A stretch of 44,931 nucleotides of DNA from Escherichia phage vB_EcoP_D, in sequence record KY295893.1, one strand, 5' to 3'. Both the position numbers and the translations under genes were made by a program. The notes under the pieces were generated by a model that worked only from the letters and a program-made list of their open reading frames with translations, ran no database searches and had not been told where the DNA came from. Shown in pieces: positions 5,107 through 32,392 of the stretch; the stretch's first letter is position 1, and every line of letters starts with the position of its first letter.

Positions 5107-5129
5107 TTGTTCTATAGTGTCAACTAAAT
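5107..5129 (-). promoter_or_regulatory. phage RNAP promoter, SP6-type subclass (ATTTAGTTGACACTATAGAACAA)
   Basis: Minus-strand 23-mer matching the SP6 consensus ATTTAGGTGACACTATAGAAGAG at 17 of 18 positions from -17 to +1; predicted +1 G at 5112; intergenic, upstream of 4585..5055. Confidence 0.6.
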
Positions 5130-6131
5130 CTTACCAATCCAGCGATTGTCATTATTGGTCTGCATCGGGACAATGTGCGGCACACCCTCCAGAATAACCA
5201 CACAACCTAATGCTGGCTTGTATTTGGACTCACGACCATAGGCAAATGCACGAGATGACTCATCAATCAAACAGCCTCCCTGCACAGCCCAATACTGTTC
5301 ATGGGTGTTACGTGCATACTCCACCGACATCTTCCCATGCAAGTGACCACACACTAAGTTCATGCGCTCATGTGCTGCATCTGCTAGGACAGCGCCAGCA
5401 GGTTGATGCTTGAACGCCACCTGCTCACCATTAGGTAGCTCAAGTACATGCGTATGCTGCCAGTCCCACTGGTCGCCACCTCCCTGCGGGAAGAAGACTT
5501 CACGGTATGTGCGCAGGTATTGCACAGGGATGCCATGAGCACTGGCCTTACGGAAATGTAAGGAGCCATGATTAGAGTGGCAGATGCGCATTACAGGGAA
5601 CATCTTATGTAATTTACGCATGAAGATACGAGCCTTCTCTAACTCCATACCAGCCGAATCCAGATTAGGATCTGACGTATGGAATGAAAGTGCGTGCTTG
5701 TCCGCCTCATCACCAAGATGAACTACAGTGTCTGGACGGTAACGTGCTGCCACCGCTGCCAGAAACTCTAATGTATCTGGATGCTCATAAGGTGCATGGG
5801 TGTCAGGTATTACCAGTACACTTCGATGAGGCGAGTCAGGCAATGGTACAATAGCCAAATCCTCGTAGCGGTCAGGAGTCCTGAGCTTACGTTCTTCTTT
5901 GATAGCACGGTTCGCAATAGCCAAGGTTTCATACGCCTCGCCATTCTTCTTCCGCTTTTCAAATTGTTTGGCCCAATACTTTGCAAGCTGCCTTGTAACT
6001 GTAGTCCCGTGTGTGTTATCTGAGAGAATAGACGCCATTAGGCGATAGTTGATAGTGCCATCATCCCGCTTTGCACTTTCAACTGCTTCTTCTACCTCCT
6101 TATTAGTAAACAAGTTTCTAATCTTACCCAT
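5124..6131 (-). CDS. calcineurin-like metallophosphoesterase
   Basis: Metallophosphatase signature pieces VIPDTHAPY, HLGDE and GHLH; ATG at 6131 (MGKIRNLF) overlaps the HNH stop by 1 nt; track start at 6143 is TTG. Confidence 0.7.
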   Translation of the reverse strand: MGKIRNLFTNKEVEEAVESAKRDDGTINYRLMASILSDNTHGTTVTRQLAKYWAKQFEKRKKNGEAYETLAIANRAIKEERKLRTPDRYEDLAIVPLPDSPHRSVLVIPDTHAPYEHPDTLEFLAAVAARYRPDTVVHLGDEADKHALSFHTSDPNLDSAGMELEKARIFMRKLHKMFPVMRICHSNHGSLHFRKASAHGIPVQYLRTYREVFFPQGGGDQWDWQHTHVLELPNGEQVAFKHQPAGAVLADAAHERMNLVCGHLHGKMSVEYARNTHEQYWAVQGGCLIDESSRAFAYGRESKYKPALGCVVILEGVPHIVPMQTNNDNRWIGKI

Positions 6132-6562
6132 TATTCTTTCCAAACCCTCCCGCTTACAATATCACTAATGGTAGCAGGTGAGACATTATATAGCTTAGCT
6201 AGTCGTAACCTCTCACCTTTCTTATTAGCAACATATGTTGCCCTGATAGCACGTACAACATCCCAAGTTAGTTTAGCACGATTATTATTTTCTCCTGCAA
6301 AGCTAGCACGTCTGCCTCGATCTATCATATCTTGTATGTTGTCCTGCTGTGTACCAGATATTAAGTGTGCAGGGTTTATACACCTTGCATTATCACAAGT
6401 GTGTCTAATCACTACATCCTTTATATCCTCTATAGAAAGGCCGTGGTGCTCTGCATAGACCACGCGATGAAGTAATTGTAACCTCTTACTAGGTTTATGC
6501 CACGACCTGTAGTAACCTAATTGATTTAAGCATTTATAATGCCCGTGGTCTATACAGTCCAT
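6131..6562 (-). CDS. HNH homing endonuclease, free-standing
   Basis: Contains the HNH core VIRHTCDNARCINPAHLISGTQQDN; ATG at 6562 (MDCIDHGHYK) with RBS AAGGAG right after the upstream gene's stop. The track's N-terminal extension overlaps the upstream gene and is not believed. Confidence 0.8.
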   Translation of the reverse strand: MDCIDHGHYKCLNQLGYYRSWHKPSKRLQLLHRVVYAEHHGLSIEDIKDVVIRHTCDNARCINPAHLISGTQQDNIQDMIDRGRRASFAGENNNRAKLTWDVVRAIRATYVANKKGERLRLAKLYNVSPATISDIVSGRVWKE

Positions 6563-6563
6563 A

Positions 6564-6965
6564 TCATACTCCTTTCTTTCTTGCATAAGCAAGGCGTGCC
6601 TTACGGTTCTTAGCCTCGCGCTTCTCTGCCTCCGTTTGATGTTTGTGATATAACTTATCTGTCTGAGGCGTACTATGTAACTTCCAGTATTCATACAGTC
6701 GTTCTAACCATTGAAGCTGGAAGTAACGGTTATTACCTGCCTTGCCATAACCAGAGATAACACCCTTAATCTTCCCTTCCGCACCATTGCAGCCTCGGCA
6801 TACAACAGCGCGGCAGAATCCTGTCTCATGGTCATGGTCAAGTACACGGTTTACAGGTGTGACAGCTTTGAGACTGCCGCCACACAGAGGGCATTTCCAG
6901 CCTTGCTTATCCAGCAATTCCTTCTTATAAGCTGCCACCTCCGATGCTTTTAATTTGCTAACCAT
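6564..6965 (-). CDS. endonuclease VII-like Holliday-junction resolvase
   Basis: 133-aa ORF with CPLCGG...LDHDHETGFCRAVVCRGCN, resembling the T4 endonuclease VII zinc/HxH region. Confidence 0.7.
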   Translation of the reverse strand: MVSKLKASEVAAYKKELLDKQGWKCPLCGGSLKAVTPVNRVLDHDHETGFCRAVVCRGCNGAEGKIKGVISGYGKAGNNRYFQLQWLERLYEYWKLHSTPQTDKLYHKHQTEAEKREAKNRKARLAYARKKGV

Positions 6966-7978
6966 TCCGCATCATCTCCCCACAAGATTGGGTTCTTATC
7001 GGCTCGCCATATATCACCTTTGAATCTAGCCATGTGAGCTAGGCGACCACATTCAAGCATCAGGTCAAAGGCTTTGCCGATACGATAACCACCTCGGTAA
7101 TTCTTAATCTTAACTTGTCCATGCCCGAACTTAGCCTTGTAAGCACCCAGCACTGCCATGTACAACTCTTTCTCTGTCTTACAATCTTTGAGAAGATCAT
7201 AGGCATATTTAGCACCACGACCTGGTATGCCAGCATAGTTATCAATATCATCACCGATAATCATCTGTGCATAGTGGAACATGAGGCCAGCACCTTTTAG
7301 ATCTTTGACTTGCCCATTAGCCTTACGGCGTAGCTCAAGCCAGCCCATAGGCTCTACCCACTTCTTCTCTTGACCCGGCTGTAGATGCCAACCGGGAACA
7401 ATCATCAAATCCTTATCCAAGGAAACGATGCAAGTATCAGAGAATGCTTTATGCTCTGGACTACCGATAGGGAACTCGTTACCTGTATCTTGCTGGAAGC
7501 GGCGGTGGCTGTCCCATTGTGCGATACTCATGAGGTCGTCTGCTTCCTCTCCATCTGCCAAGATTGCACCGTGAACCTCTAAGAGATGCTCTCGCAATTC
7601 ATAGAAGAATGGAGGCTTCTCGGTCTTACGTTGGCCTTTATAAGGCTTGGTGAATGCTAGGCGGACACGGAAGTTAGCTTCTGATTTCGTCATGAATAAC
7701 TTAGCTGCATCACATTCTGCTGCATACACCCAAGAGTTAAGCAAGGAGTTCACACGGTCACACGCTTGCTTACACTCAGGCGTATCTTTGATTGATGGGA
7801 CTTGTCCTGACTTAACACGAGTTGTGGCTCGTACATAAGTCATGTCGCTGATTGTATACGCGACGATGTAAGGCAACATATCGGCATCTATTAAAGCGAT
7901 TCGATTACCTTCAGTCGGCCACAGGATGAGATTATTGTCTTCCGATACTGTAGCTCCGAAGTCGAAGTTTGGTCGCAT
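6950..7978 (-). CDS. 5'-3' exonuclease (T7 gene 6-like, FEN family)
   Basis: N-terminal ALIDADMLPY and GEEADDLM motifs; ATG at 7978 with RBS AAGGAG; track start 7987 is GTG. Confidence 0.8.
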   Translation of the reverse strand: MRPNFDFGATVSEDNNLILWPTEGNRIALIDADMLPYIVAYTISDMTYVRATTRVKSGQVPSIKDTPECKQACDRVNSLLNSWVYAAECDAAKLFMTKSEANFRVRLAFTKPYKGQRKTEKPPFFYELREHLLEVHGAILADGEEADDLMSIAQWDSHRRFQQDTGNEFPIGSPEHKAFSDTCIVSLDKDLMIVPGWHLQPGQEKKWVEPMGWLELRRKANGQVKDLKGAGLMFHYAQMIIGDDIDNYAGIPGRGAKYAYDLLKDCKTEKELYMAVLGAYKAKFGHGQVKIKNYRGGYRIGKAFDLMLECGRLAHMARFKGDIWRADKNPILWGDDAEWLAN

Positions 7979-8163
7979 GTAGGCCACTCCTTCAAGAAGG
8001 AGGACACCGCATCATGGAGGTTCTGTCTTAACCAATAGTCATCCCATTGTCTCACCTCCACTAGCTTCTCACCAGTTTTGTAATCATAGGCAACCCCAAT
8101 ATACTGTCTGGTGATTGCATTGTAGCTAATGTCCAGTTCAATTCGAGATTCAATAGTCGGCAT
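7891..8163 (-). CDS. hypothetical protein
   Basis: 90-aa ORF with ATG 8163 and RBS GGAG; its last 88 nt overlap the exonuclease start in another frame. Confidence 0.4.
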   Translation of the reverse strand: MPTIESRIELDISYNAITRQYIGVAYDYKTGEKLVEVRQWDDYWLRQNLHDAVSSFLKEWPTCDQTSTSELQYRKTIISSCGRLKVIESL

Positions 8164-8280
8164 AATTCATTCTCCAATAACTATTACGCAAAAGACCCTG
8201 CCTACACTAAGGCAGACAGGGCATTAGATGAGGTGAGCGTGATAGTCAACTAGGACTAAAAGAGGCTACACCTGCTATTA

Positions 8281-8652: not shown

Positions 8653-8702
8653 ATTAAATTCTCCTTTTGTTGGTTATGGCATTATCGCCGATTAAAATTC
8701 TT

Positions 8703-8725
8703 CTCTTCTATAGTGTCCAGTAAAT
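8703..8725 (-). promoter_or_regulatory. phage RNAP promoter, main subclass (ATTTACTGGACACTATAGAAGAG)
   Basis: Minus-strand match to the repeated consensus; +1 G at 8708; intergenic, upstream of 8281..8652. Confidence 0.6.
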
Positions 8726-8740
8726 ACCGGACACCGATTT

Positions 8741-8756: not shown

Positions 8757-8757
8757 T

Positions 8758-8976: not shown

Positions 8977-8985
8977 CCTTTCTCC

Positions 8986-9848: not shown

Positions 9849-9871
9849 TTGTTCTATAGTGTCCAGTAATT
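9849..9871 (-). promoter_or_regulatory. phage RNAP promoter, main subclass (AATTACTGGACACTATAGAACAA)
   Basis: Core identical to the other main-class promoters, one change in the upstream AT-rich part; +1 G at 9854; overlaps the stop of 9870..10169. Confidence 0.55.
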
Positions 9872-10617: not shown

Positions 10618-10640
10618 TCCTTCTATAGTGTCCAGTAAAT
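10618..10640 (-). promoter_or_regulatory. phage RNAP promoter, main subclass (ATTTACTGGACACTATAGAAGGA)
   Basis: Minus-strand consensus match; +1 G at 10623; lies in the 370-bp intergenic region downstream of DNA polymerase. Confidence 0.6.
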
Positions 10641-14253: not shown

Positions 14254-14943
14254 TTAGATATTCACGTATGTTTCTTCAGTAACGATAGGTAGGTACAGTA
14301 ATTCTTCACCATTTAAGATGTGAAGACCTTTCAACCCTTGCTTACGAATAATGCCTTCTATAGTGTCGGCAAAATGCTTATTAATTACACGTCGTTGCGT
14401 ACCTTGTTCTGTGATTGCATGGTCAACATCCATGATTCGCACAGGTACATTTGGATGCATCATGGCTTCTCCAATCTTTACCATAGCTTGTCCTGTGGAT
14501 TTACCCAATGCACGAGTATTAAACTGTGTAACACCTAATGCAGTGCCACATTGCTTAATCATCTCACTTTGAGTCTTACCAGTGATTACATTGCGACGCT
14601 CTTTCTTGAGTGTGGTTTTCTTTTCTGCCATGTACTCTGCTAGTGTTTGAGGACCAGCACCATAATAAAGAGGAGCTAGGAAATTCTTAAGCATCTGGCG
14701 AGCACATTTATCGCAAACCTCATCATGTATGCACTTACATTGATTGTTTATCTCTACAATCTTTTCAAGATATTTATGTGCTGTCTTCTTGTGGTAATAT
14801 TGCTTAACACCACTGCGATATTCTACATAATACAGGTTCTCACCTACAAAGGTTACAACACCACGGCAAAGATAGCGACTTGAAACTTTCTTGATGTTGC
14901 GTACAAAGTCACCTACATTCAACACTAAGTTATACATAATCAA
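14254..14943 (-). CDS. hypothetical protein with CxxC...CxxC cluster
   Basis: 229-aa ORF (start could be 14943 or 14937); contains NNQCKCIHDEVCDKCARQ. No family recognised. Confidence 0.5.
   Translation of the reverse strand: MIMYNLVLNVGDFVRNIKKVSSRYLCRGVVTFVGENLYYVEYRSGVKQYYHKKTAHKYLEKIVEINNQCKCIHDEVCDKCARQMLKNFLAPLYYGAGPQTLAEYMAEKKTTLKKERRNVITGKTQSEMIKQCGTALGVTQFNTRALGKSTGQAMVKIGEAMMHPNVPVRIMDVDHAITEQGTQRRVINKHFADTIEGIIRKQGLKGLHILNGEELLYLPIVTEETYVNI
14353..14375 (-). promoter_or_regulatory. promoter-like sequence inside a gene (ATTTTGCCGACACTATAGAAGGC)
   Basis: Core GACACTATAGAAG conserved, upstream part divergent; lies within ORF 14254..14943, so function is uncertain. Confidence 0.35.
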
Positions 14944-15171: not shown

Positions 15172-17159
15172 TAAAACTCCTGTTCATCGTCAAAGGTTGT
15201 CTCTTCTATAGTGTCCGGTAAATCAGGTACTTCTTGTTGCCTTGCTTCACCTGTATCAAATGACTTAGTACGGGCTTGTGGTTCTAGCAGTCGGCCCGTA
15301 GCGATGTCACCCTTAAGCATAATCTTAGTACCAGAGTAAATCCCTTGATCCCTATCTTTAACACAGGAAATATAGGTAGTAGTTCGCTCATCTAGTGTCT
15401 CTGCCCTCGTGTTCCTTTCGATGCCCAAGGCATATGATGCCCAAAAGCCGATAGCGCCTGAGCCTCGGAAGTCAGAAAGGATAACCTCGCCACCTTCTTC
15501 GTGTTGGGTACGGTTTGCCGGAGGACGTGTAAGGTGAGAGACAAGGAATATAGTAACTGGGTGTCGGTCTTTGATAGTACCAATCCGCTTGACGCATTCA
15601 TCAAGTGCACCAACCTTCCCACCAAAAGCACGCTCATCTAATTTAATCCCCGTTAAGTTATCAATGATGATATTAGAAATGCCCATAGCCTCAAACTCTA
15701 GGCAAGTTTGCTCTACCTTCTCCATAGAATAGTCGCCTTCTAGGTCAGCCACAAATAGCTTTCCTGTATCAGCCACATAATCAATGGCAGCGTTAGCTTC
15801 TTCCTCGGTGTAGTCGAACACCTCACGGTATCCGTCTTCTTTCGGGTCGTTGGTTGGCGGTAACTCAATACGCTTATCAATCCACTTGCCGATAAAAGCA
15901 CGGGACACCTTGACCATTGGGTCTTCTGTAGAAATGATGCCTACAGATTCACCGTGTTCTTCAATGAGGTGCTTAACCACTTCGCGAAGGAACTCAGTCT
16001 TACCTACACCAGAGCCTGCACCTACAATGATAAGCTGGTTCTTACGAATACCTAGCGTTACCTTGTTCAGCTTAGGCCAAGGCCATGATAACCCTTGCTC
16101 TGGACGTGCAGCCTTGAGCTTATCCCTTTGAGATGCGATAGATTTAATCTGGCTACCAAAGACTTCATCAGATGACTTGGCATTAAACCAAGCATCAACA
16201 AACTCTTTAGCCTTGCCAGCCATCAATGCCTTGTTAGCATCTTTGCAACCAGAGGGATATTCGAGGATGTAGGATTTGCCAGGAAACAGGCGAGCAGCTT
16301 GTTGGTTCTGCTTCTGCCCTACCTCATCCCCATCAAAACCCCATATAATCTTCTTGAATTGGGCGATATGCTCACGGTTCTGCACTATCTCTTCAAGGCA
16401 AGACTCGCCTTTGTTGACAGACCATACATGGTATGGCTGGCCTTCCCACTTAGTACCCTTGGCAGAATCAAGGAGCATCTGCTGCGCTGCTAGTGCATCA
16501 AGTTCACCACCTACAATAAGCAAGCAATCCTTTCGTCTCCCCTTGTCTAACACGTGAGACAAAGTATTCATACCGAAAAGATCTTGCATACCAAAGAGTT
16601 TACCTAAATGACCAAACTTAAAATCTTTAGGTAATGTGCGACACTTAGCGCCTACTAGCTCACCTTTTTCGAAGCGTGGATAGTAATGCCGTGAGACTCT
16701 ACCCTCTTCATCGTGCCCAACACGTACATCATACAATGCGCAAATGTCGCCGCGAATGTGTCTGGAAACAAGGTTCTTACGCTTAAGCGTGAGGAACCAT
16801 TCAACATCAAGTTTCCACTCTGCTTCTTGCTCTGCCCTTTCTTGTTCATTCATGACCTCCCAACGGTCTTTCATACGCATACCACCAAGTGCGATGGCGC
16901 GTAGCTTAGGGTCGCTAATCTTCCCTTCCTTCTCCATCTCTTTAAACTGAGAAGGTGTATATTTGATGTTTCCAGTGATAGGTAACTCTGTTATCTCGAT
17001 GCCACCTTCCGGCTTATGGTAGTAGGGTCTGCCATTATCATGGAAGTGACCACGGTTACAGTATCCTGCCCCGTCGTCAAAGATCATTAAATGATTGCCA
17101 GTAATATCATGTCCGTTCTTTTGGCAAGCAGGACACGGTACATTCTGAATAATAGCCAT
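15171..17159 (-). CDS. DNA primase/helicase (T7 gene 4-like)
   Basis: 662 aa; N-terminal Cys4 zinc motif (CPACQ...C..GH), central primase region, C-terminal Walker A GAGSGVGKTEF; acidic C-terminus ending DDEQEF; RBS GGGAG. Confidence 0.9.
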   Translation of the reverse strand: MAIIQNVPCPACQKNGHDITGNHLMIFDDGAGYCNRGHFHDNGRPYYHKPEGGIEITELPITGNIKYTPSQFKEMEKEGKISDPKLRAIALGGMRMKDRWEVMNEQERAEQEAEWKLDVEWFLTLKRKNLVSRHIRGDICALYDVRVGHDEEGRVSRHYYPRFEKGELVGAKCRTLPKDFKFGHLGKLFGMQDLFGMNTLSHVLDKGRRKDCLLIVGGELDALAAQQMLLDSAKGTKWEGQPYHVWSVNKGESCLEEIVQNREHIAQFKKIIWGFDGDEVGQKQNQQAARLFPGKSYILEYPSGCKDANKALMAGKAKEFVDAWFNAKSSDEVFGSQIKSIASQRDKLKAARPEQGLSWPWPKLNKVTLGIRKNQLIIVGAGSGVGKTEFLREVVKHLIEEHGESVGIISTEDPMVKVSRAFIGKWIDKRIELPPTNDPKEDGYREVFDYTEEEANAAIDYVADTGKLFVADLEGDYSMEKVEQTCLEFEAMGISNIIIDNLTGIKLDERAFGGKVGALDECVKRIGTIKDRHPVTIFLVSHLTRPPANRTQHEEGGEVILSDFRGSGAIGFWASYALGIERNTRAETLDERTTTYISCVKDRDQGIYSGTKIMLKGDIATGRLLEPQARTKSFDTGEARQQEVPDLPDTIEETTFDDEQEF
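15201..15223 (-). promoter_or_regulatory. phage RNAP promoter inside the 3' end of the primase/helicase gene (ATTTACCGGACACTATAGAAGAG)
   Basis: Perfect main-class consensus; +1 G at 15206; 35 nt upstream of the primase/helicase stop. Confidence 0.5.
16545..16560. repeat. palindrome-like element GTCTAACACGTGAGAC inside the primase/helicase gene
   Basis: One mismatch from the intergenic palindrome family; encodes SHVLDKG in-frame. Confidence 0.5.
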
Positions 17160-17316: not shown

Positions 17317-17339
17317 CTTATCTATACTGTCCGGTAAAT
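17317..17339 (-). promoter_or_regulatory. phage RNAP promoter, variant (ATTTACCGGACAGTATAGATAAG)
   Basis: One core mismatch (G for C at -5); +1 G at 17322; directly upstream of the gene 1.1-like ORF. Confidence 0.55.
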
Positions 17340-17344: not shown

Positions 17345-17360
17345 GTCTCACATGTGAGAC
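17345..17360. repeat. 16-bp perfect palindrome GTCTCACATGTGAGAC
   Basis: Intergenic; ends 6 bp from the -17 position of promoter 17317..17339. Confidence 0.7.
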
Positions 17361-17500: not shown

Positions 17501-17523
17501 CTATCCTATAGTGTCCGGTAAAT
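17501..17523 (-). promoter_or_regulatory. phage RNAP promoter, main subclass (ATTTACCGGACACTATAGGATAG)
   Basis: First promoter downstream of the RNAP gene; +1 G at 17506. Confidence 0.6.
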
Positions 17524-17526: not shown

Positions 17527-17542
17527 GTCTCACATGTGAGAC
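17527..17542. repeat. 16-bp perfect palindrome GTCTCACATGTGAGAC
   Basis: Identical to the copy at 17345; ends 4 bp from promoter 17501..17523. Confidence 0.7.
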
Positions 17543-17615
17543 ACGTTTATGTTAATGAAATGTTACAGGTAGTAGGTAAAAGAAAGGCCACTCCCGAAGG
17601 AATGGCCTATTAATA

Positions 17616-20243
17616 TTATGCGAAGCAATAGTCTGAAACTAAGATTTCGTTAAGGTCAAACTCCCCTTGCTCTGGTACTTGTATTCCGGTGTCTACTAAC
17701 CAACGCTCTTCGTGCACATCTAGCAGGTTTTGCAGGGCATTATGGTTTTGATACATCTTAACCATTTCTTCCCTTAAGCTATCCCGCAGGTCTGCGGTAC
17801 GTCCTGCATGAGTACCGAAAGAATCATGGATGACTGCAATGGATGTAATACCTTTATCCACTAGGTCACATACAGTCAGAATCAGGTGGCTAGCATCGTG
17901 ACCATGGACGAAGTTAGGAGCAGCCGCACCCATCATTGCCGTTTCATCAACTACATCTGTTTCAATCTGGAGACTCATCTTGATTTCACCCATCAAGCAA
18001 GTGGATACGCGGAGCATATCGGTAGCCATTATCTTTTGTTGCAAGATGAAGCCAGTTGGTAAGGGATATTCTAAGCCTTCGTTTCTTTTAGCTGCGAAAC
18101 GTGCAAGCTGACGAATCATTTTCATTGCCACTATAGGAGCTTTAACCACTTCCGAAATAGAAGGCCAGATTAAAGCTGTCATATAGTTATAAGCTGCGCT
18201 AGGTGTCAGGCTGTCTTTGCGGTCATTATCAAAAGGATGTACAGGATTGGCGGTACGCCCTTCCGCAATAGCCCGTTGGGCCTCTTTTTCTTCCAAATCA
18301 ACGATATAATCAATCACTGATTCACGGCAGGTTAGACGTGTGCTGCCATAAGGTAGTGTCATTACAGGCTTTTTGGTCAGGCCGCGAGTGATTCCTATCA
18401 TATCCCACGCACTAGCCATGCTACGAAGTTCTGCACCTGTTAAAGTCACGCTGCCAGAAGTGAAGGTTTCCGCATCCTCTGCATTCATGTATGCATAATT
18501 CTTCTGAATTACTACCTGCGCAACGGCACCATAAATATCTTGAGGGGAGTCAGAGGGCTTAAGGTTTACCGCTTTCGCACCTACTGCATCGCGTAGCATA
18601 GTACTGTAGTGCTGGATACCAGAACAACTACCATCTTGATGGACTGGGAGGTGCGTCATGAATTGGTCTTGCGTGCCTTCATCCAGTGCATCCAGATAAC
18701 GCGCATATTCAAAGCACCATGCAAGGAAGCCGTAAGGGGAGTCGGCATTTACCCATTGAGTGAAGGTCAGCGGATCCGCTGCAATGTCGCGGCACATGTC
18801 TTGAAATTCACTATCCAGCACGTTAGCGGTGCGCACGTCAAAAGTTTTCTTATCCCAACCCCAGTTATTAGCCCCGTTCACCAAAAACCACTTAAGCGCC
18901 TCAGCGCTATCAAGACGCTGCCCTTCGGTAAAACGGAGCAATGCCTTGCCTAAGTCGTTTGATTGCGGAGAGAGCGTGCTAGATTGCGCGTAGACGCGGC
19001 TGCGGCTGTCCAGAGCATACACGAAGTATATTGCGTCAAATTGGCTGTATTTACGGGCCTGCCCTACCATGCGGACGGTCGCCGCCGATTTGCTGCCGCG
19101 CTTAGTCTCAGCGGTATACAGCTTGGTGCATTCACCTTTCCAGTTGATGAAGGCTTGCCATTGTTCCGGTGTTAACATTTCTTTCAGTTCACGGCCTCGC
19201 AGGTGCTGGAACTCTAACGGCACCGGATTAGCTGGCTTGTTCTCACGGTCGATGAGTGGTTTAAAGGAAGGTACACCATAGCCGAGGTCTAGACGTATAA
19301 CGTCCTCCACAACCTGTAAAACCTCTTTATTAACCTGCCACTTAGTTGCCTGCAAAGCGTTAACAGCCTTATAAACGGCTGGCATTTGCTTTTTGGTCAG
19401 CTTGCGGACGTGCTCACGATTGCCTTTTACCAGACGAATACGGCTTGCTACTTTCTCAGTATGAAACCCACCGTTAAAAGGTGATACCCAAGGGCGGGGA
19501 GGTATAACGCAAGGTGCATAGGCAGGGCTGAGCTGCGCTACATGTTCCTTAAATGCAGTTATCCACTCGCCAACATGTTCACTGGTCTGTAAATAGTAAA
19601 CACCATGCTTTCCGCCGTTAGTGCGCAAGGTACGAAGGAAAACAGGTTGACCATTGAAGAATACACTATTCTCCAATATTTCGAGCAAGGTCATACCGAT
19701 TTGCAGCAAGGTGTCTTTAGGCCATGCCTCCCAACGGGAGAAATCCGCGTCACGGTCAGCAACAGATTTCTCAGCTACTACCGCTACGTTGTGCGCATGA
19801 CGATAAGATTTAGTCTTGCTAGCCTTAAGCGACTTCTTCACTTTCTCAAAGTACTTAGCTGCGTGACCTTCCAGCTTGCTAAAACGTACTTGGTCCTCGA
19901 TGCGGTCTGCTACATTCATAGCGATAGCTTGTAAGGTAACGTCTGTATTCAGCATATCCATAACGATTTTCATGGTGATATATGCTGCCACTTCGTTTCC
20001 TACGCAGTTAATGAAAGCTAATGCACGTGGTGCACGACCTCTCTTGCCTTCGTATTCTTCCTTGTAAGCCTGAATACCTTCCGCCATAGGTGCGATTAGT
20101 TCGGACAATAAGCGTCGATTCCATGCCGTGTCTGATTCATTACCGGATGCAATCTGGCGTTGTTGGTCCGCTTCAAAGCGACGGATACCGCCGTTAAACA
20201 TTTCTTCTTCAAGTTGAAGTTGAATAGCGTGTAGGTCTTGCAT
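17616..20243 (-). CDS. single-subunit DNA-directed RNA polymerase (SP6-type)
   Basis: 875-aa ORF; N-terminus [32 protein letters not shown] and C-terminus ...[14 protein letters not shown] match my recollection of SP6 RNA polymerase closely; ATG at 20243. Confidence 0.95.
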
Positions 20244-20306: not shown

Positions 20307-21191
20307 TTACTTAGTCAACTCTTCTACTGCCTCAGAGATTAAGGGCCATGCTTCATGGCCTTCACCGTAGCCTAGCTTAACCAGTTCGCGGCGTGCCTTG
20401 TTAACTGCTGTTTTCTTCGTTGCCTCCTCAGCGCTTAAACCTAAGCGAGCATAGAAGCAGGAAGATTTGAATTGCGGCAGCATAGGCGCGGCTGCCTTCT
20501 TGCTTTCGCGTGCGCTACTTAAGGAGGCGATGCGGTCATTGGCTGCCTGTAATTGCTCAGTCAGTGCTTTAATTTGTGCCAGCAGACCAGCAATAGCGGC
20601 ATTCTCAGTATTAGCCGTGTTATCCAGCGGCGCGGCCTTCGGTGCCTCCGGCTTGCTTTCCTCTTCCCATGGTGCTGATTCGTCGGCCTCCTGCTCGCTC
20701 GCGGGTGGCACTACCTGCGGCGCTTGCATTTCCTGTGATTCTGCGGCCTCAGTCGCGTTCTCCTGCGGTTTTACCGCCTCAGCCTTAGATTGTACCGTTT
20801 CAGTCTTTATCTCTTTCTTAGGTTCAATCAGGGCGTTTACGGCATTAGTGTCCAGCTTGCCAGCTGCGGCGAGTTCTGCGGCCTTCTCCATGATTATATT
20901 TTCATCAGCGAAAGGAACAAGCGCCAGCATTACACGCATAGCCACACCTTTAAAGCGTTCGTCTCCTTCAAAGACACGGGCTACACTCATCAGCTTGTAG
21001 CATTGTGCCTTCTTGATGCCGAACTCTGATTCTACATAAGCTAAAAAGTCTTTTTGACCTTCGAAATCACCGCGTAATTCATTCAGACAAGCGCCAACTT
21101 TGATGTAAGAAGTGCCGATATTGTCTAAGTGCTGCTTGATTTCAGCGGTTGCAGCTTCACGAACAGACAGAAGGGTGTTTTCAGTAGTCAT
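20307..21191 (-). CDS. hypothetical early protein with acidic low-complexity middle and coiled coil
   Basis: 294 aa from ATG 21191 (RBS AAGGTG); track start 21200 is GTG. No family recognised. Confidence 0.55.
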   Translation of the reverse strand: MTTENTLLSVREAATAEIKQHLDNIGTSYIKVGACLNELRGDFEGQKDFLAYVESEFGIKKAQCYKLMSVARVFEGDERFKGVAMRVMLALVPFADENIIMEKAAELAAAGKLDTNAVNALIEPKKEIKTETVQSKAEAVKPQENATEAAESQEMQAPQVVPPASEQEADESAPWEEESKPEAPKAAPLDNTANTENAAIAGLLAQIKALTEQLQAANDRIASLSSARESKKAAAPMLPQFKSSCFYARLGLSAEEATKKTAVNKARRELVKLGYGEGHEAWPLISEAVEELTK

Positions 21192-21254
21192 AATAGTCAC
21201 CTTATATAGTGTAAGTAAATATCACATAGCCCACACAGGCAGGCTATAGGCTAG

Positions 21255-21545: not shown

Positions 21546-21568
21546 TTCTCTTATAGTGTCAGCTAAAT
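21546..21568 (-). promoter_or_regulatory. phage RNAP promoter-like, SP6-type subclass with A at +1 (ATTTAGCTGACACTATAAGAGAA)
   Basis: -17 to -1 differs from the SP6 consensus only at -11, but +1 is A; located in the early region upstream of the RNAP gene. Confidence 0.45.
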
Positions 21569-21676
21569 AGTTTGTATGTAGTACCTAGCACTTCCTCACG
21601 AATCTGCGCAAATCGTAAGGAACATTTCAGGGTTACACCGTCTGAGAAGATGAAGTTATATTGCCTTTCCATCTTA

Positions 21677-22731: not shown

Positions 22732-22857
22732 AGTTCACCTTAGTAAGTAGTTAGCCTACCAAGGCACTAGCCAGATTGTTAAAGAGCGGGATGTTTAAAG
22801 ACGTCGCCGTCTTGATGCTTAATGTAGCCTTGTATGCCGTGGTTGTCAATAGTTAAT

Positions 22858-23698: not shown

Positions 23699-23727
23699 AA
23701 TGTATACCTGTTAACTGCCTATGTCAA
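23699..23727 (-). promoter_or_regulatory. candidate host sigma70 early promoter (-35 TTGACA, 17-bp spacer, -10 TACATT)
   Basis: Minus strand reads TTGACA-taggcagttaacaggta-TACATT, with an AT-rich stretch upstream; lies between the short-repeat array and the first early gene. Confidence 0.5.
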
Positions 23728-27675: not shown

Positions 27676-27754
27676 ATACTCTCCTATTACTTCCCAACCC
27701 TCCCTATGAAGATTGGCTAGTAATAGGCCGCTCAAAAGAACGGCACTATCTTAT

Positions 27755-27777
27755 CTCTTCTATAGTGTCAGTAAATC
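27755..27777 (-). promoter_or_regulatory. phage RNAP promoter upstream of the tailspike module (GATTTACTGACACTATAGAAGAG)
   Basis: -10 to +6 (TGACACTATAGAAGAG) identical to the SP6 consensus; upstream part shifted relative to the main class; +1 G at 27760. Confidence 0.6.
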
Positions 27778-27805
27778 GTAAGACACTGATACATAAAACT
27801 ATGTA

Positions 27806-28003
27806 TTAATTATACCCGTGTTCTAGCGAGAGAATGTACATACCTAATTTTGTAGCGTCAGGTTTACTGAAGCAGACTTTATCGTCCACCTCGTAGACTG
27901 CCGTAAGCGTCGGCTTCAGAGGCTTCACCTTTGGATTCTCTGGTAACGCCGTCTGACACCCTGAAGTGATCAGCGAACCAATCAGCAGGATTGTCGCTAG
28001 CAT
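27806..28003 (-). CDS. candidate outer-membrane spanin (Rz1-like lipoprotein)
   Basis: 65 aa from ATG 28003 (RBS GAGG): MLATILLIGSLITSGC followed by Pro-rich QTALPENPKVKPLKP; lipobox is imperfect; embedded in another frame of the ORF below. Confidence 0.4.
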   Translation of the reverse strand: MLATILLIGSLITSGCQTALPENPKVKPLKPTLTAVYEVDDKVCFSKPDATKLGMYILSLEHGYN

Positions 28004-28695: not shown

Positions 28696-28715
28696 TATTG
28701 ACCTCGTCTTTACAA

Positions 28716-29003: not shown

Positions 29004-29015
29004 GTAACTCTCCTC

Positions 29016-29294
29016 TTAAGCTGGGTAAATAGTAGTGACCGCTTTATTAGCTGTCAACCAATTGGAATCTTCTTTGCCATCAACTGCGATAGCAATAACC
29101 AGGTTATCATGTGTATCAAGACACACCATGGCCCCTTTCTGCTTACCTGATTTGGTGGCATCATTAATAACATCACCTTTCTTCTCAACAGTGTCCTCGT
29201 AAACTACAGGAAGCATCAGGGCTTCACTCACAGGTTGTATCTGCTTACGAGCAGACTTACCTGTAAGGGGTTGTGTACTATAACTATTAGACAT
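29016..29294 (-). CDS. hypothetical protein, paralog of 28716..29003
   Basis: 92 aa from ATG 29294 (MSNSYSTQ, RBS AGGAGAGAGA); track start 29354 is GTG. Confidence 0.5.
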   Translation of the reverse strand: MSNSYSTQPLTGKSARKQIQPVSEALMLPVVYEDTVEKKGDVINDATKSGKQKGAMVCLDTHDNLVIAIAVDGKEDSNWLTANKAVTTIYPA

Positions 29295-29427
29295 TCTCTC
29301 TCCTATTATGTAAGTATAGTAAGGAAGTAAGGAATAGGGTGTACAGGAGTACACCCATACTAAGGAATACCTATATAACCTAGGTTAACCTATATTATCC
29401 TTGTTATTTCTCTTATTATCTGGGCCT

Positions 29428-29450
29428 TCCTTCTATAGTGTCCGGTAATT
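29428..29450 (-). promoter_or_regulatory. phage RNAP promoter, main subclass (AATTACCGGACACTATAGAAGGA)
   Basis: +1 G at 29433; overlaps the terminase stop codon; upstream of the paralog pair and lysis genes. Confidence 0.55.
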
Positions 29451-30180
29451 AATAAGTCCTTGAAATCCTTGCAGAAAGTGTATTTCTGCTTGCCGATTTA
29501 CTCCTGTAATTCTGACCGTATACTCTTTGCTGCATAGCCACGGAAGTGTTGGTTACTCTTCGCTCAGTGCCATAATCTCCATAGAGCATTGCCCTACGGA
29601 GGTGAGGTGTGTTCATAGCTTGGATATAATCGCGCATCTCCTGCGCTCTGAGGCGATTAATCCGTGTAACCTCGTCATAGTCTATCTGAGAAGTTAATTG
29701 CCGTATAGCGCCATACAGCGCGTCTAAGCGGTCATCGTGCCGGAGGCTGTTCTTCTCAATCGTGATGTTCGACATTTGATTGAAAAGGCTGTATGACATG
29801 CGTAGTTCAAGCGGATAGTGCTGTACCGACTCAAAATCAGACTTGACCATCTCTGCGTTGAAGATGAGCCTGTGGGCCGCCATTAGTGGCTCTAGTGTTT
29901 CAATGATACGCAACTCTTTCTGTCCGGTGGCGTAATCTTCCTCCAGAGTCACAGGCCACTCTCGTTCAAAGTATGGCTTTATAACGGCCTCAAACGCGCC
30001 ATGACCAAAGTTCTTTTCAATGAATACCTCTTTAACACCTGCCTGCTTTGCGGCCTGCACAATGCGATTCAGGGACGATTCGCGGTATCCTCCCGGCACA
30101 CCAAAGCACTGATACACATAAATGAATGTGCCGTGCAGGAAGACGATAGCCACACCCGTTTCATCCCCATTCTTACCTCC
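29449..30180 (-). CDS. terminase large subunit, exon 2 (nuclease domain)
   Basis: Encodes GGKNGDETGVAIVFLHG... and a downstream HDDRLDAL acidic motif; in frame with exon 1 after removal of 30181..30926; spliced product ~633 aa. Confidence 0.75.
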   Translation of the reverse strand, partial: GGKNGDETGVAIVFLHGTFIYVYQCFGVPGGYRESSLNRIVQAAKQAGVKEVFIEKNFGHGAFEAVIKPYFEREWPVTLEEDYATGQKELRIIETLEPLMAAHRLIFNAEMVKSDFESVQHYPLELRMSYSLFNQMSNITIEKNSLRHDDRLDALYGAIRQLTSQIDYDEVTRINRLRAQEMRDYIQAMNTPHLRRAMLYGDYGTERRVTNTSVAMQQRVYGQNYRSKSASRNTLSARISRTY

Positions 30181-30706
30181 CGGTTTGAACGTGACGTGCG
30201 AGCCAACCCTTGTGGTGTTTACGTAAACCATGTGCCACCTTACGCATATTCTGAGGTGTTAGGTTGTGCTCTTTACAGAAGTCAGTAATGCAAGTTACAA
30301 GAAACTCTTCACCATCTGGAGAAGTGAATATGTAATCTTTGCCAGTACCTTTGTTGTAAGGTGTCATGCCTTTCTTGAACTCAGTGGCAACAGACAAGTG
30401 CTGTCCTTTCTTGATTTCAGTGGCAATACTTATGCGTTCACCTTTCTCGATGTTACCTGCTTTGCGATAACCACCTTTACCCTTATTCCAACCCATGTTG
30501 TCATGTGGGCGTAGCTTCTCTTCTAGTGCATAACACTCTTCTTTGCTACCAGTGAATAAGATAACGTACTCGCGGCCATCACAAAGACGGCCTGCACACT
30601 TGTGCTCTCTCATACGCTTCTTAATATCGGAGGTTACACCAATATAACCTTGCATTACATCAGTTTCACCAACAACACGAATATGATAAACTTTATGCTC
30701 TGTCAT
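30173..30706 (-). CDS. GIY-YIG homing endonuclease, intron-encoded
   Basis: 177 aa, RBS AAGGGAG; N-terminal KVYHIRVVGETDVMQGYIGVTSDIKKRMREH fits the GIY...YIG...R...E pattern, followed by repeated basic GxxxxxxxIATExKKG segments; stop codon lies 6-8 nt past the predicted 3' splice site. Confidence 0.85.
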   Translation of the reverse strand: MTEHKVYHIRVVGETDVMQGYIGVTSDIKKRMREHKCAGRLCDGREYVILFTGSKEECYALEEKLRPHDNMGWNKGKGGYRKAGNIEKGERISIATEIKKGQHLSVATEFKKGMTPYNKGTGKDYIFTSPDGEEFLVTCITDFCKEHNLTPQNMRKVAHGLRKHHKGWLARHVQTGR

Positions 30707-30926
30707 ATTTAACTCCCTTCAATTGTTACGTTAATTCGCTACTTTAACTTCTACTAGTCACCTAGTAGGTCGGACTATATCTTAGGCTTGCGCCTCCCTC
30801 TGTTTCAGACCGCTTGGCCTTACAGTTAGTCTCTACACGTTCCTGTTATTGCAACAGGCTTCGCTCGGTATTGTCTCAGTGAGAGTTCCACCGAATTAAG
30901 AGGGTTTTACGCTGGCAGAGGTGTTT
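30181..30926 (-). mobile_element. group I intron in the terminase large-subunit gene
   Basis: Intron RNA contains matches to the group I core elements: P-like AAUUCGGUGGAA (30886..30897), Q-like AAUACCGAGC (30863..30872), R-like GUGUAGAGACUAAC (30825..30838), S AAGAUAUAGUCCG (30771..30783). Predicted P1 pairs exon GCUGGU with GCCAGC (30911..30916) with a U.G at the splice site; predicted P10 pairs exon 2 GGAGGU with ACCUCU; last intron base is G. Confidence 0.75.
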
Positions 30927-32096
30927 ACCAGCGGGGTCAATGTACATAATTTTACGGGTGACAGCGCCCCATTCATACGGTCGGGCCACAGGGCGATACA
31001 TAAAGTCTGTAGGCTTATTGCCATACTTCGGTGCATCGCCAATGATGTTAATAGAGTCGTTGCTCCATGTAGGCATCACAGGGACTTCCTCTGTACCGAA
31101 TGAAGTGAAGATGAGGTTGTTCAGGCGTAGCGGATAGCGGTCAGCATCCATCATGCGAGTGTTAAGCATAAACTGAAGCTGGAACTTAGCCGCACCCTGC
31201 GAGATTTCCTTCTCAATCAGCACATCATCATCATACATTTCAGGTGCACAAGGGGCACCACTATTGCCATCCAAGCCATACCCTGAGCGAAGTGCTGGGT
31301 TGTCCTTCATATCCTGCACAATCATAGGTGCAAGGAAGTCGCCATAGCATTGCTCCTGCTCCACTGAGGGATAACGTGCAGTCCAGATACGAACAGAGTA
31401 ACCACGAGCAGGTAGGTTATTGTAGATAGAGTTTACGTTCTGAGGAGTACCAAGGTAGATAATATCACCAAACTGGTTAATAGATTCAAACTCCTTGGTC
31501 AGTTCCTCAAGCAAGGCACGTCCTGCCGCTGTACGAGCATTCTGCATTGACTCAACGTCATCTGCTAGGATGATATCTGCACGCGCACCCTGCATACCTG
31601 CTTCGATTGAGTAACAAGACACAGAAGGCGACTTGTCACTGCCACGTAGGGTGTAATGAATCTCAAATGCCTTAACTGAGGCACGGTCCCCTGCGTAGAT
31701 GTCCGGTAGCATAAACTCAAGAAAGTCTAGGCCACGGAAGATTTTAACTACCCAACCTGCGATTTCCTCTGCTCGCTTGGCGTTTTGGGATACAACCATG
31801 ATACGCTTATGCGGTTCATGAATGATACGGAATACTGTATAGATTGCTGATAGTGTTGTCTTAGCGATACCACGAGGCGCTTCGATGAGGCGATACTTGT
31901 GTCCGTAGAATAGGAACTTCAAGATATCAGCCTGCATACGAATCAGATGAGGGTTGCCTGCAATTAAGTTATGAATAACTGTGTCTGCAAAGAGAAGCAA
32001 ACCTTCCGCTGTGTAAGGAAAGGTCTGCTGTAACTCCTGTAGCATCTCCCATCTGGCAAGAGCCTCCGCTTGTGATTCTCTTGCCTTAGCCATCAA
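30927..32096 (-). CDS. terminase large subunit, exon 1 (ATPase domain)
   Basis: Encodes 390 aa up to ...KIMYIDPAG; track ORF continues 16 codons into the intron to a stop (...KHLCQRKTLLIRWNSH). ATG at 32093 follows an in-frame TTG at 32096. Confidence 0.8.
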
Positions 32097-32392
32097 TCCT
32101 CCTTAGTGAATTGAATAATCTTGCCACTTGATGCCTCTCGGATAGCCTTGAGGCGCTTAGATAGCTTGGACTCCTCCTGCTGTGCAGCGGGTGTAGCGGT
32201 AATACCATTATCAAGAACCCACTTACACATAGCTCCAATGTCTTTACCAGAGACTAAATGCAGTGCTGCATCTGGGTCTTCTTCTATAGTGTCCAGTATT
32301 GCCTGTGCTTTCTTATTAAAGATTTTGGTAATAGCACCATGTAGAATGCCAACCTCGTCTTCCGTAGCTGCATGTTTATTGTGTACGCTCAT
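32093..32392 (-). CDS. candidate terminase small subunit
   Basis: 99 aa from ATG 32392 (MSVHNKHA, strong RBS GGAGGAGGAG); assigned by position immediately upstream of the large subunit (T7 gene 18 position); no sequence motif recognised. Confidence 0.5.
   Translation of the reverse strand: MSVHNKHAATEDEVGILHGAITKIFNKKAQAILDTIEEDPDAALHLVSGKDIGAMCKWVLDNGITATPAAQQEESKLSKRLKAIREASSGKIIQFTKED
32279..32301 (-). promoter_or_regulatory. promoter-like sequence inside the small-terminase gene (CAATACTGGACACTATAGAAGAA)
   Basis: Core identical to main-class promoters, upstream AT-rich part weaker; +1 G at 32284. Confidence 0.4.

Follow-up and report, generated by a model that had tools for sequence, protein, structure and literature searches.

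The twelve minus-strand sites described here are promoters for the one T7-like RNA polymerase (RNAP) that the phage encodes; together they are the usual promoters of such a K1E-like phage, a known kind of feature, and all twelve presumably fire in vivo. The original prediction had divided them into two subclasses with different bases at -12 to -10. We think instead that they probably make up a single class of promoter, in which certain slots deviate under constraint and the deviation is tolerated, and not two regulatory subclasses, and that one of the supposed minority sites is a recent one-base deletion.

The promoter set of the window

The window, the whole stretch of 44,931 nucleotides that was analysed, is a nearly complete, reverse-complemented genome of a K1E-like Vectrevirus, with 99.9-100% identity to vB_EcoP_R and vB_EcoP_C. 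Every gene of the genome lies on the minus strand, and so do the promoters. Twelve minus-strand sites fit ATTTACYGGACACTATAGAAG, far above chance expectation: there are ten exact matches to GACACTATAG where 0.10 would be expected, none of them on the plus strand, and two more sites carry one mismatch each, 17322 (GACAGTATAG) and 21551 (GACACTATAA). Sites are named here by +1, and the original prediction placed each of them at +1 minus 5.

A position weight matrix covering -17 to +6, built from the twelve sites and used to rescan both strands as had been proposed with the prediction, returned exactly the same twelve at 27-37.5 bits. The next best match reached 8.1 bits, a gap of more than 19 bits between the sites and the background of that matrix, and the shuffle maximum was 18.9 bits; in leave-one-out scoring the sites reached 20.6-36.7 bits. 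The -7 to +1 core CACTATAG, common to T7, T3 and SP6, is exact in ten of the twelve, the exceptions being 17322, where -5 is G, and 21551, where +1 is A. The predicted set of about twelve minus-strand promoters of a T7-family phage RNAP is borne out in number, and is supported by conservation at the K1E and K1-5 gene junctions and by the presence of a cognate RNAP gene. The sites are as follows, with a slash before +1.

32279-32301, minus strand: intragenic promoter in gp39 (small terminase), CAATACTGGACACTATA / GAAGAA, +1 at 32284
29428-29450, minus strand: P-gp41, AATTACCGGACACTATA / GAAGGA, +1 at 29433
27755-27777, minus strand: P-gp46 (tailspike operon), GATTTACT-GACACTATA / GAAGAG, +1 at 27760; canonical minus one G
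21546-21568, minus strand: P-gp5, ATTTAGCTGACACTATA / AGAGAA, also given as ATTTAGCT, +1 at 21551 (A); G-C-T variant
17501-17523, minus strand: P-gp8a, ATTTACCGGACACTATA / GGATAG, +1 at 17506; first of a tandem pair past the RNAP gene
17317-17339, minus strand: P-gp8b, ATTTACCGGACAGTATA / GATAAG, +1 at 17322; G at -5
15201-15223, minus strand: intragenic promoter at the 3' end of helicase gene gp9, ATTTACCGGACACTATA / GAAGAG, +1 at 15206
14353-14375, minus strand: intragenic promoter in gp10, ATTTTGCCGACACTATA / GAAGGC, also given as ATTTTGCC, +1 at 14358; G-C-C variant
10618-10640, minus strand: P-gp15, ATTTACTGGACACTATA / GAAGGA, +1 at 10623
9849-9871, minus strand: P-gp16, AATTACTGGACACTATA / GAACAA, +1 at 9854
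8703-8725, minus strand: P-gp18, ATTTACTGGACACTATA / GAAGAG, +1 at 8708
5107-5129, minus strand: P-gp23, ATTTAGTTGACACTATA / GAACAA, also given as ATTTAGTT, +1 at 5112; G-T-T variant

P-gp5 comes first among the phage promoters, ahead of gp5, gp6 and the RNAP gene. P-gp8a is preceded, at about 20 nt, by a 16-nt palindrome, and the G at -5 of P-gp8b is also kept in K1E, K1-5 and IMG/VR relatives. Three sites are intragenic, as predicted: 14358, inside the 241-codon frame of gp10; 15206, within the last 35 nt of gp9 (a 663-codon frame whose stop lies 34 nt downstream); and 32284, 108 nt into gp39 and some 190 nt ahead of the large-terminase gene. Translated in the gp9 frame, promoter 15206 reads L-P-D-T-I-E-E and its SP6 orthologue AATTAGGTGACAC reads L-G-D-T-I-E-E; the promoter is predicted to drive gp9.5 and gp10. 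K1E and K1-5 share the gp39 promoter; SP6 lacks it, and the same codons there read A-A-V and not D-T-I. The thirteenth promoter of the set, that of the capsid gene, is just outside the window: this promoter, found in K1E, K1-5 and vB_EcoP_R, falls in the approximately 140 nt absent between the two ends. As for a lysozyme-type RNAP inhibitor such as T7 gp3.5, the annotation of vB_EcoP_R, a near-identical record, has no closer entries than those for an M15 peptidase and for an internal virion protein that is lysozyme-like.

Variation among the promoters is concentrated at -12 to -10, as had been noted, and eight of the twelve read C-Y-G there; the lineage consensus is ATTTAC(C/T)GGACACTATAGAAG. 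The statement that most sites read ATTTAC(T/C)GG holds roughly, for eight sites, although 9854 and 29433 start AATTAC, 32284 starts CAATAC and 17322 has its G at -5. Three sites had been called SP6-like, of which only 5112 and 21551 are G-Y-T at -12 to -10, and 14358, with GCC, is a fourth form. An SP6-type identity was considered for 5112, 21551 and 27760 and rejected, as they have GTT, GCT and ACT against G-G-T.

In alignment, 27760 reads GATTTACT-GACAC, which is the canonical ATTTACTGGACAC minus one G, and the deletion leaves it with ACT at -12 to -10. The single-base gap appears against K1E (two records), K5, K1-5, vB_EcoP_K and SP6, and is shared only with vB_EcoP_C and vB_EcoP_R; the upstream half of the site falls to -4.5 bits in leave-one-out scoring. 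Judged by these alignments, 27760 is a recent one-base deletion of the vB_EcoP_C/R lineage in a promoter that is already annotated in X78310 (K1E) and Y10025 (K5).

The polymerase and its reading of -12 to -10

The cognate enzyme and the element that follows its gene are:

17616-20243, minus strand: single-subunit phage RNAP gene, 875 aa; matches T7 RNAP structures (E=1e-110), 85% identity to SP6 RNAP
17585-17608, minus strand: terminator-like hairpin immediately past the RNAP stop; 10-bp stem with 6 G-C pairs, then TTCTTTT

From its sequence and place, the hairpin is probably the early terminator, dividing the early unit from the promoters P-gp8a and P-gp8b. The specificity loop of the RNAP has 23 residues, and its Ser747 aligns with SP6 Arg746 and T7 N748. 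An SP6 specificity loop was considered and rejected on this residue, which is Arg in SP6 and the SP6-like enzymes. The Ser-type loop occurs in 14 of 14 K1E-like RNAPs (the phage's own and those of 13 loci), each paired with an ACYG consensus, and the Arg-type loop in five of five SP6-like RNAPs, each paired with AGGT. Proteus PM93, an outgroup, has Arg at the T7 N748 equivalent, so that Ser is the derived state. The consensus shift from AGGT (SP6) to ACYG (K1E) goes with the change from Arg to Ser, a correlation that amounts to a single evolutionary event. Ser-type genomes have a pyrimidine at -11 in 117 of their 120 sites, and Arg-type genomes have G there in 48 of 49. Both true deviants, 5112 and 21551, keep the K1E-type pyrimidine, which argues against two discrete subclasses.

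Evidence on tolerance comes from a close homologue, RNAP No. 2049, which is 97% identical to the phage RNAP and has Gly where the latter has Ser757 (the T7 Q758 equivalent). In vitro it yielded 3.5% of the T7 reference on an SP6-type (AGGT) promoter, TATTTAGGTGACACTATAGAAGAG, about 2% on its own ACTG consensus, TATTTACTGGACACTATAGAAGAA, and 0.18% on TAATTAGAGACCACTATAGAAGAA, altered at -11 to -8, in a comparison whose promoters also differ at +6 and in which changes to the initial transcribed sequence moved the value from 2% to 10.6% (PMC13029058). SP6-type and K1E-type promoters are thus about equal for this enzyme, so a single RNAP tolerates both forms, one of the two possibilities that the original prediction had offered; the other, subclasses that differ in strength or timing, gains no support from the analysis. 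Tolerance is supported as well by L010, a natural K1E-type genome in which a Ser-type RNAP coexists with a tailspike promoter of SP6 consensus. The Ser-type enzyme probably reads -12 to -10 loosely and still discriminates at -9/-8.

Coding overlaps and competing explanations

Two genes end inside promoters of the set:

5124-6131, minus strand: gp22, a 345-codon frame ending with TAG at 5126-5124, matching K1E gp22; stop inside P-gp23
21559-21672, minus strand: gp4, a 37-aa ORF with coordinates per K1E gp4; TGA stop (21559-21561) inside P-gp5

Every conserved deviant (5112, 21551 and 14358) overlaps coding sequence, and the coincidence of deviant bases with stop codons is the other point against discrete subclasses. 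The gp22 stop TAG occupies -14 to -12 of P-gp23 and requires a purine at -12; a gp22 stop stands at these positions in all Molineuxvirinae lineages checked, even where the promoter consensus is another one. The gp4 stop TGA forms -10 to -8 of P-gp5 and requires the T at -10, and the gp4 peptide, MERQYNFIFSDGVTLKCSLRFAQIREEVLGTTYKLFS, is kept in all K1E-like and SP6-like loci, always ending at this TGA. At 14358, -12 to -10 are the Ala codon GCC of gp10; relatives have GCA or GTC, and the SP6 orthologous site is TATTACGTGACACTATAGG. Further upstream, the A at -16 of P-gp16 is explained by the gp15.5 stop TAA, which sits at -18 to -16; the gp40B stop TAA occupies the same positions in P-gp41, so that both AATTAC sites (9854 and 29433) have TAA there.

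Across K1E, K1-5 and other K1E-like loci, slots without coding overlap at -12 to -10 have C-Y-G as their usual state in eight of eight cases, bar sporadic single-genome variants, and three of the five overlapped slots deviate. By hand calculation, the hypergeometric chance of all three deviants falling in overlapped slots is 10/286 (about 0.035). These patterns suggest that the coding overlaps cause the deviations, and stop-codon constraint on P-gp23 and P-gp5 is plausible but unproven. Some observations run against this account. The T at -10 of P-gp23 and the G at -12 of P-gp5 are conserved though not forced by the stop codons, so that epistasis between -12 and -10, or selection for a given promoter strength, may play a part. 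SP6-like phages end gp22 with TAA although TAG would fit their consensus, so the stop requirement alone does not explain their A at -12. A consensus promoter would extend gp22 by only 4 residues at P-gp23, and gp4 by about 13 at P-gp5.

A different explanation, which we hold to be unlikely but of some weight, is that P-gp5 and P-gp23 were selected to be non-consensus for weaker or differently timed expression, P-gp5 being a weak A-initiating promoter with limited positive feedback on the RNAP gene, much as class II stands to class III in T7. Both slots are indeed non-consensus at -12 in both genera (G in K1E-like phages, T or A in SP6-like ones). The P-gp23 23-mer is identical in 15 of 15 K1E-like loci and its flanks vary; P-gp5 is identical in K1E and K1-5, with T at -10 and A at +1 in 20 of 20 relatives checked in both genera. 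The TAA that SP6-likes retain at P-gp23 and the freedom of its -10 T from coding constraint point the same way, as does the C-Y-G at -12 to -10 of the late-region intergenic P-gp31 (capsid), P-gp41 and P-gp46 in K1E and K1-5. Yet the 97%-identical RNAP is no less active in vitro on a GGT promoter than on a CTG one, which means that a promoter can have G at -12 and T at -10 without being weakened; the P-gp23 slot is not fixed, reading ATTTAGGT in the genome of the No. 2049 phage; and it is general knowledge from T7 that timing in T7-like phages is largely set by the order of genome entry.

It seems improbable to us that the deviants reflect two epistatic recognition modes, whereby a Ser-type RNAP would recognise either pair, C(-12)/G(-10) or G(-12)/T(-10), but no mixed state, and a stop codon locking one position would oblige its partner to stay SP6-like. 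The counts in Ser-type genomes look favourable at first sight, with 79 (C,G), 17 (G,T), no (G,G) and only three (C,T), and both stop-locked slots do hold the partner position SP6-like. Those three (C,T) speak against it, as do ten (G,C) at the gp10 slot and eight (C,A); the counts come from the same few slots in close relatives and are not phylogenetically independent, and every combination is seen in SP6-like genomes. We give very little credence to the minority sites being non-functional look-alikes or sequencing artefacts. Such doubts fit 27760 best, its deletion lying in a GG run and occurring only in two isolates of one study, and its upstream half scoring poorly (-4.5 bits), but the deletion is found in two deposited genomes, and 5112, 21551 and 14358 are conserved across genera in nucleotides, wobble positions included, with leave-one-out scores of 21-30 bits against a shuffle maximum of 18.9 for the full matrix.

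Comparison with known phages

K1E and K1-5 (Vectrevirus) have an orthologue for all twelve sites, with the same 23-bp sequences at the same gene junctions, and the comparison of sites also covered 16 IMG/VR loci across the RNAP gene and 28 across gp22; in K1E, ten of the twelve are identical over -17 to +6, the exceptions being the gp10 site and P-gp46. The window differs from both in the 1-nt P-gp46 deletion and in the capsid promoter, which is outside it. Promoter tables are reportedly given by Scholl et al. 2004 (J Mol Biol) and Stummeyer et al. 2006 (Mol Microbiol). Pairs of RNAP and promoter have been described as a "K1E cluster" (PMC11880802), a near-identical promoter list has been published for RNAP No. 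2049 (PMC13029058), and the K1E RNAP with its capsid promoter has been used in an expression system (PMC6412113).

SP6 (Zindervirus) promoters, ATTTAGGTGACACTATAGAAG, have the same bases at -17 to -13 and -9 to +4, and the lineage consensus differs from that of SP6, ATTTAGGTGACACTATAG, only at -12 to -10, with CYG against GGT; 5112 and 21551 agree with SP6 at -12 and -10 and not at -11. The SP6 enzyme, 85% identical, has Arg where the phage RNAP has Ser. SP6 uses the same slots, among them the intragenic ones in gp9 and gp10 and those overlapping the gp22 and gp4 stops. A counterpart can be identified there for ten of the twelve, all but the gp39 slot and that of P-gp5, where the match is weak.

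T7 is more distant, with an RNAP identity of about 32%. Its class II promoters are weaker and deviate, and its class III promoters are consensus, whereas the deviating sites of this phage do not appear to fall neatly into temporal classes: 21551 lies in the early region and 14358 and 5112 in the middle region, yet the middle-region sites 15206, 10623 and 8708 have the full consensus. A phage promoter precedes the RNAP gene here; T7 is not known to have one upstream of that gene. The likenesses to T7 are a single RNAP serving a consensus set with deviating members, some promoters within genes, a tandem pair right after the RNAP gene (17506 and 17322, like phi1.1A/phi1.1B) and an A-initiating promoter (21551, like phi2.5, which also starts with A).

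Promoter set and genome context

The repeated minus-strand motif of the original prediction is a real promoter motif, far above chance: GACACTATAG occurs in exactly 10 copies in the window, on the minus strand only, against 0.10 expected, and two more sites come in when mismatches are allowed: 17322, which has G at -5, and 21551, whose +1 base is A. Sites are named here by +1, which is 5 nt above the position first given for each of them. A position weight matrix over -17 to +6 was made from the 12 sites and used to rescan both strands, as had been proposed; it recovered exactly these 12 at 27-37.5 bits (20.6-36.7 bits when each was left out in turn), the next best score being 8.1 bits and the best in shuffled sequence 18.9 bits, and the rescan of the window found no promoters on its plus strand. 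The sites are promoters of the K1E/K1-5 type. Positions -12 to -10 read C-(C/T)-G at eight of them. The proposed division into two subclasses with three SP6-like members stands in part: 5112 and 21551 are true G-(C/T)-T variants, 27760 is the product of a 1-nt deletion, and 14358 forms a separate G-C-C variant. The three sites said to lie inside coding sequence do so.

Promoters that deviate at -12 to -10 or lie within genes
5112, minus strand: promoter P-gp23, G-(C/T)-T variant, ATTTAGTT
21551, minus strand: promoter P-gp5, G-(C/T)-T variant, ATTTAGCT
14358, minus strand: G-C-C variant, ATTTTGCC; intragenic, in gp10, 103 nt before the stop
15206, minus strand: intragenic, in the final 35 nt of the helicase gene gp9
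32284, minus strand: intragenic, in gp39, 108 nt after the start and ~190 nt before the large-terminase gene

Over a 20-kb piece, the window matches vB_EcoP_C at 100%, vB_EcoP_R at 99.9% (species Vectrevirus cee) and K1E at ~97%, and the minus strand is the coding strand of every gene. The window represents an almost complete genome in permuted form. Its minus strand starts within the capsid gene and runs to 4 nt short of the scaffold-gene stop; the ~140 nt absent between the 3' end of the scaffold gene and the 5' end of the capsid gene are where the capsid promoter ATTTACTGGACACTATAGA(A/G)GG of K1E, K1-5 and vB_EcoP_R falls. The large-terminase gene is split into 40A (30876..32096) and 40B (29449..30231) by a group I intron at 30751..30999 on the minus strand (Rfam RF00028, 61 bits, E=3.5e-13) carrying a homing-endonuclease ORF (30173..30706, minus strand), unlike gp40 of K1-5 and SP6, which is uninterrupted.

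Other elements lie near the promoters. A perfect 16-nt palindrome, GTCTCACATGTGAGAC, occurs at 17527..17542 and 17345..17360, one copy ahead of each tandem promoter (17506 and 17322) at a distance of ~20 nt, so that palindrome and promoter form a duplicated unit with ~184 nt spacing directly after the RNA polymerase (RNAP) gene. T7 has its phi1.1A/phi1.1B origin region at the same position, so by analogy the unit may serve as an origin of replication or bind a regulator. A strong terminator-like hairpin (17585..17608, minus strand; 10-bp stem, then TTCTTTT), 8 nt past the RNAP stop codon, is probably an early terminator for the host RNA polymerase. Many transcripts would open with a short inverted repeat just past +6 (+7 to +40 of 27760, 17506, 10623, 9854 and 5112; for example CCGTCGGAGACGG at 17506, CCTAGGTAATCTAGG at 10623 and GCCGTTCTTTTGAGCGGC at 27760), and these repeats may act as 5' stabilising hairpins or RNase III sites. 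Upstream of P-gp5, in the early region, two sigma-70-like sites (23699..23727 and 22821..22849, minus strand; TTGACA, 17-nt spacer, TACATT; 10/12 matches) are candidate early promoters for the host polymerase; the count of such sites in the early region is not above shuffle expectation.

P-gp5 itself is distinctive: it starts with A, and gp5, gp6 and the RNAP gene lie downstream of it, an order that could give positive feedback on polymerase synthesis; a weak hairpin (21248..21225) stands between it and the RNAP gene. A thirteenth promoter in the window, 21204 (TATTTACTTACACTATAT), was rejected, as it scores <8 bits here against 18 bits in K1-5, the gp6 start codon being 4 nt away. The degenerate promoter-like sequence there, TATTTACTTACACTATATAAGG (21185..21221, minus strand), which precedes the gp6 start by 4 nt, has one base fewer than its K1-5 counterpart ATTTACTTAACACTATATAAGG (18 bits) and is probably a decayed promoter.

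Polymerase specificity and the reading of -12 to -10

All 12 promoter positions have orthologues in K1E and K1-5. Over -17 to +6 the K1E orthologues are identical except at the gp10 site and the tailspike-operon promoter P-gp46 (27760), which leaves 10 of 12 unchanged. The scan was extended to IMG/VR loci, 16 that span the RNAP gene and 28 that span gp22. P-gp23 is ATTTAGTT in 15/15 K1E-like loci, and most SP6-like loci have ATTTAAGT there; at P-gp5, -10 is T and +1 is A in every locus scanned. SP6's own promoters carry G, A, C or T at -12 and T or G at -10, which makes -12 to -10 a soft promoter segment in both genera. The sharp discriminator between K1E-type and SP6-type sites is -11, where genomes with a K1E-type RNAP carry a pyrimidine at 117/120 sites and SP6-like genomes carry G at 48/49. 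Both 5112 and 21551 have the K1E-type pyrimidine at -11 and are thus hybrids, not SP6 promoters.

The window encodes an 875-aa single-subunit RNAP (17616..20243, minus strand) that matches T7 RNAP structures at E=1e-110 and SP6 RNAP at 85% identity. In T7 RNAP, N748 reads -10 and -11. Mapping of the specificity loop onto the alignment places Ser747 of the window enzyme and Arg746 of SP6 at this position, with Lys and Ser in both enzymes at the equivalents of R756 and Q758. The loop is of the Ser type in 14/14 K1E-like RNAPs (the window and 13 loci) and of the Arg type in 5/5 SP6-like ones, a perfect match to the ACYG and AGGT consensus sequences that amounts to essentially one evolutionary event. 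Since Proteus phage PM93, with the consensus AATTA[GA]AGACCACTATAG, also has Arg in the loop, Ser is the derived state. A 2025 study places K1E and SP6 in separate RNAP-promoter clusters, outside T7-derived recognition rules (PMC11880802).

The original prediction had offered, as one option, that a single RNAP tolerates both promoter forms, and published activities support it. RNAP No. 2049 (PMC13029058) shares 97% identity with the enzyme of the window, including the Ser at the key position but not Ser757, where it carries Gly; its source genome lists the same promoter slots, TATTTAGCTGACACTATAAGAGAA among them, and has the full SP6-type triplet at the P-gp23 slot, GATTTAGGTGACACTATAGAACAA. 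In vitro, relative to T7 RNAP, this enzyme gave 3.5% activity on the SP6-type TATTTAGGTGACACTATAGAAGAG, ~2% on its own consensus TATTTACTGGACACTATAGAAGAA and 0.18% on the PM93-type TAATTAGAGACCACTATAGAAGAA (PMC13029058). Thus GGT against CTG at -12 to -10 matters at most about twofold, on templates (TATTTAGGTGACACTATAGAAGAG and TATTTACTGGACACTATAGAAGAA) that also differ at +6 and in a system where changes at +2 and +5 alone raise activity from 2% to 10.6% (PMC13029058), and changes reaching -9/-8 abolish activity. It is therefore unlikely that K1E-type and SP6-type promoters are orthogonal for a K1E-type enzyme.

The tailspike promoter and its cassette

The third site originally counted as SP6-like, 27760, reads GATTTACT-GACAC, and alignment with two K1E records, K5, K1-5, vB_EcoP_K and SP6 identifies it as the canonical ATTTACTGGACAC minus one G. 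The ~130-nt block around it (27700..27830) is almost invariant, even against SP6 and K5, apart from -12 to -10. Among 96 matching phage records, only vB_EcoP_C and vB_EcoP_R match the region at 100%, and the vB_EcoP_R sequence shows the deletion directly. The missing G may be genuine, a lesion specific to this lineage, or an error in the GG homopolymer. Its loss puts the AT-rich upstream element one position out of register and leaves the upstream half with a leave-one-out score of -4.5 bits. No convincing candidate for a terminator isolating the tailspike operon lies between 29433, the promoter P-gp41, and 27272, so read-through from 29433 could compensate for a damaged 27760.

Locus L010 (L010:2726) has a Ser-type RNAP, yet an SP6-consensus promoter with SP6-like flanks stands ahead of its tailspike cassette; as judged from its sequence, it is a natural case in support of one enzyme using both forms. 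Locus L017 (L017:2214) has a K1E-type promoter followed by an SP6-like downstream flank. These mixtures make the tailspike promoter block look like a recombination junction for tailspike cassettes.

Coding overlaps and comparison with known systems

Every site that deviates at -12 to -10 or at -16 (5112, 21551, 14358, 9854 and 29433) overlaps coding sequence. At 5112 the 345-codon gp22 frame stops with TAG at -14 to -12, which requires a purine at -12 and bars the consensus C; at 21551 the gp4 frame stops with TGA at -10 to -8, which requires T at -10 instead of G. At 14358 an Ala codon, GCC, occupies -12 to -10 (GCA or GTC in relatives), and the TAA stops of gp15.5 and gp40B at -18 to -16 account for A in place of T at -16 of 9854 and 29433. 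The gp4 peptide (MERQYNFIFSDGVTLKCSLRFAQIREEVLGTTYKLFS in K1E-like phages, MNGKQYTFQFSDGITLKCSLRFAMMREETLGTSYKLVM in SP6) is real and conserved, and stops at the promoter TGA in 20/20 genomes examined. In each Molineuxvirinae lineage examined, those with another consensus included, gp22 stops at -14 to -12 of the downstream promoter; K1E-like phages use TAG there, and SP6-like phages, Proteus PM93 and loci L033, L043/44/47 and L046 use TAA. Across K1E, K1-5 and other K1E-like loci, 8/8 positions without coding overlap at -12 to -10 are usually C-Y-G, sporadic single-genome variants aside, against 3/5 with overlap that deviate (hypergeometric probability ~0.035, calculated by hand, not tool output).

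The three intragenic sites share one frame relative to the promoter (x-x-D-T-I-E-E/G), and at 15201..15223 and 32279..32301 the protein sequence follows promoter requirements: the helicase C-terminus is L-P-D-T-I-E-E in K1E-like phages (CCG) and L-G-D-T-I-E-E in SP6 (GGT), and gp39 reads A-I-L-D-T-I-E-E-D at the K1E-lineage promoter and A-I-L-A-A-V-E-E-D in SP6, where the promoter is absent.

The best-supported reading is one promoter class served by one polymerase that reads -12 to -10 loosely, with deviants that overlap a stop codon or codon and one site with a recent single-base deletion. Strict covariation of -12 and -10 was rejected, as unproven, as evidence for two classes: there are mixed states, and the counts lack phylogenetic independence. 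Two points still leave room for selection for tuned, perhaps weaker, promoters at P-gp23 and P-gp5, or for epistasis between -12 and -10: the unconstrained partner bases (-10 of P-gp23, a T, and -12 of P-gp5, a G) also stay SP6-like, and SP6-like phages keep the gp22 stop as TAA, not the consensus-compatible TAG. As to how the deviants came about, we speculate that an Arg-to-Ser change of the specificity residue in the K1E lineage was followed by a move of free promoters from AGGT to ACYG. Promoters doubling as upstream-gene stop codons (gp22 TAG at -14 to -12, gp4 TGA at -10 to -8) would have been unable to follow and would remain as partly ancestral 'fossils', tolerated because the Ser-type enzyme reads -12 to -10 loosely; the same looseness would let tailspike cassettes with SP6-type promoters pass between genera, as L010 suggests. 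We hold this history tentatively, the balance tipping slightly against it.

The finding is real and already known in kind. The GenBank records of K1E, K1-5 and SP6 are without promoter features, and PMC4837284 and PMC4640515 add nothing on phage-specific promoters; the tailspike-operon promoter was previously annotated in X78310 and Y10025, a near-identical promoter list has been published for the RNAP No. 2049 genome (PMC13029058), and an expression system has been built on K1E RNAP and the K1E capsid promoter (PMC6412113). Modestly novel is that, after polymerase specificity shifted, the deviant bases are tied to stop codons that overlap the promoters; this suggests that apparent promoter 'subclasses' in a compact phage genome can reflect gene overlap, not regulation. 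Practical gains are small: a K1E-like coliphage of therapeutic type has a clean promoter map, a naturally damaged tailspike promoter is flagged in vB_EcoP_C and vB_EcoP_R, and the link from Ser or Arg to -12 to -10, with the tolerance data, is useful when choosing orthogonal SP6-family polymerase/promoter pairs. By analogy, the arrangement as a whole appears to parallel that of T7, where established knowledge has the same elements: deviating sites beside a consensus set, promoters within genes, two promoters in tandem immediately downstream of the RNAP gene and one that initiates with A.
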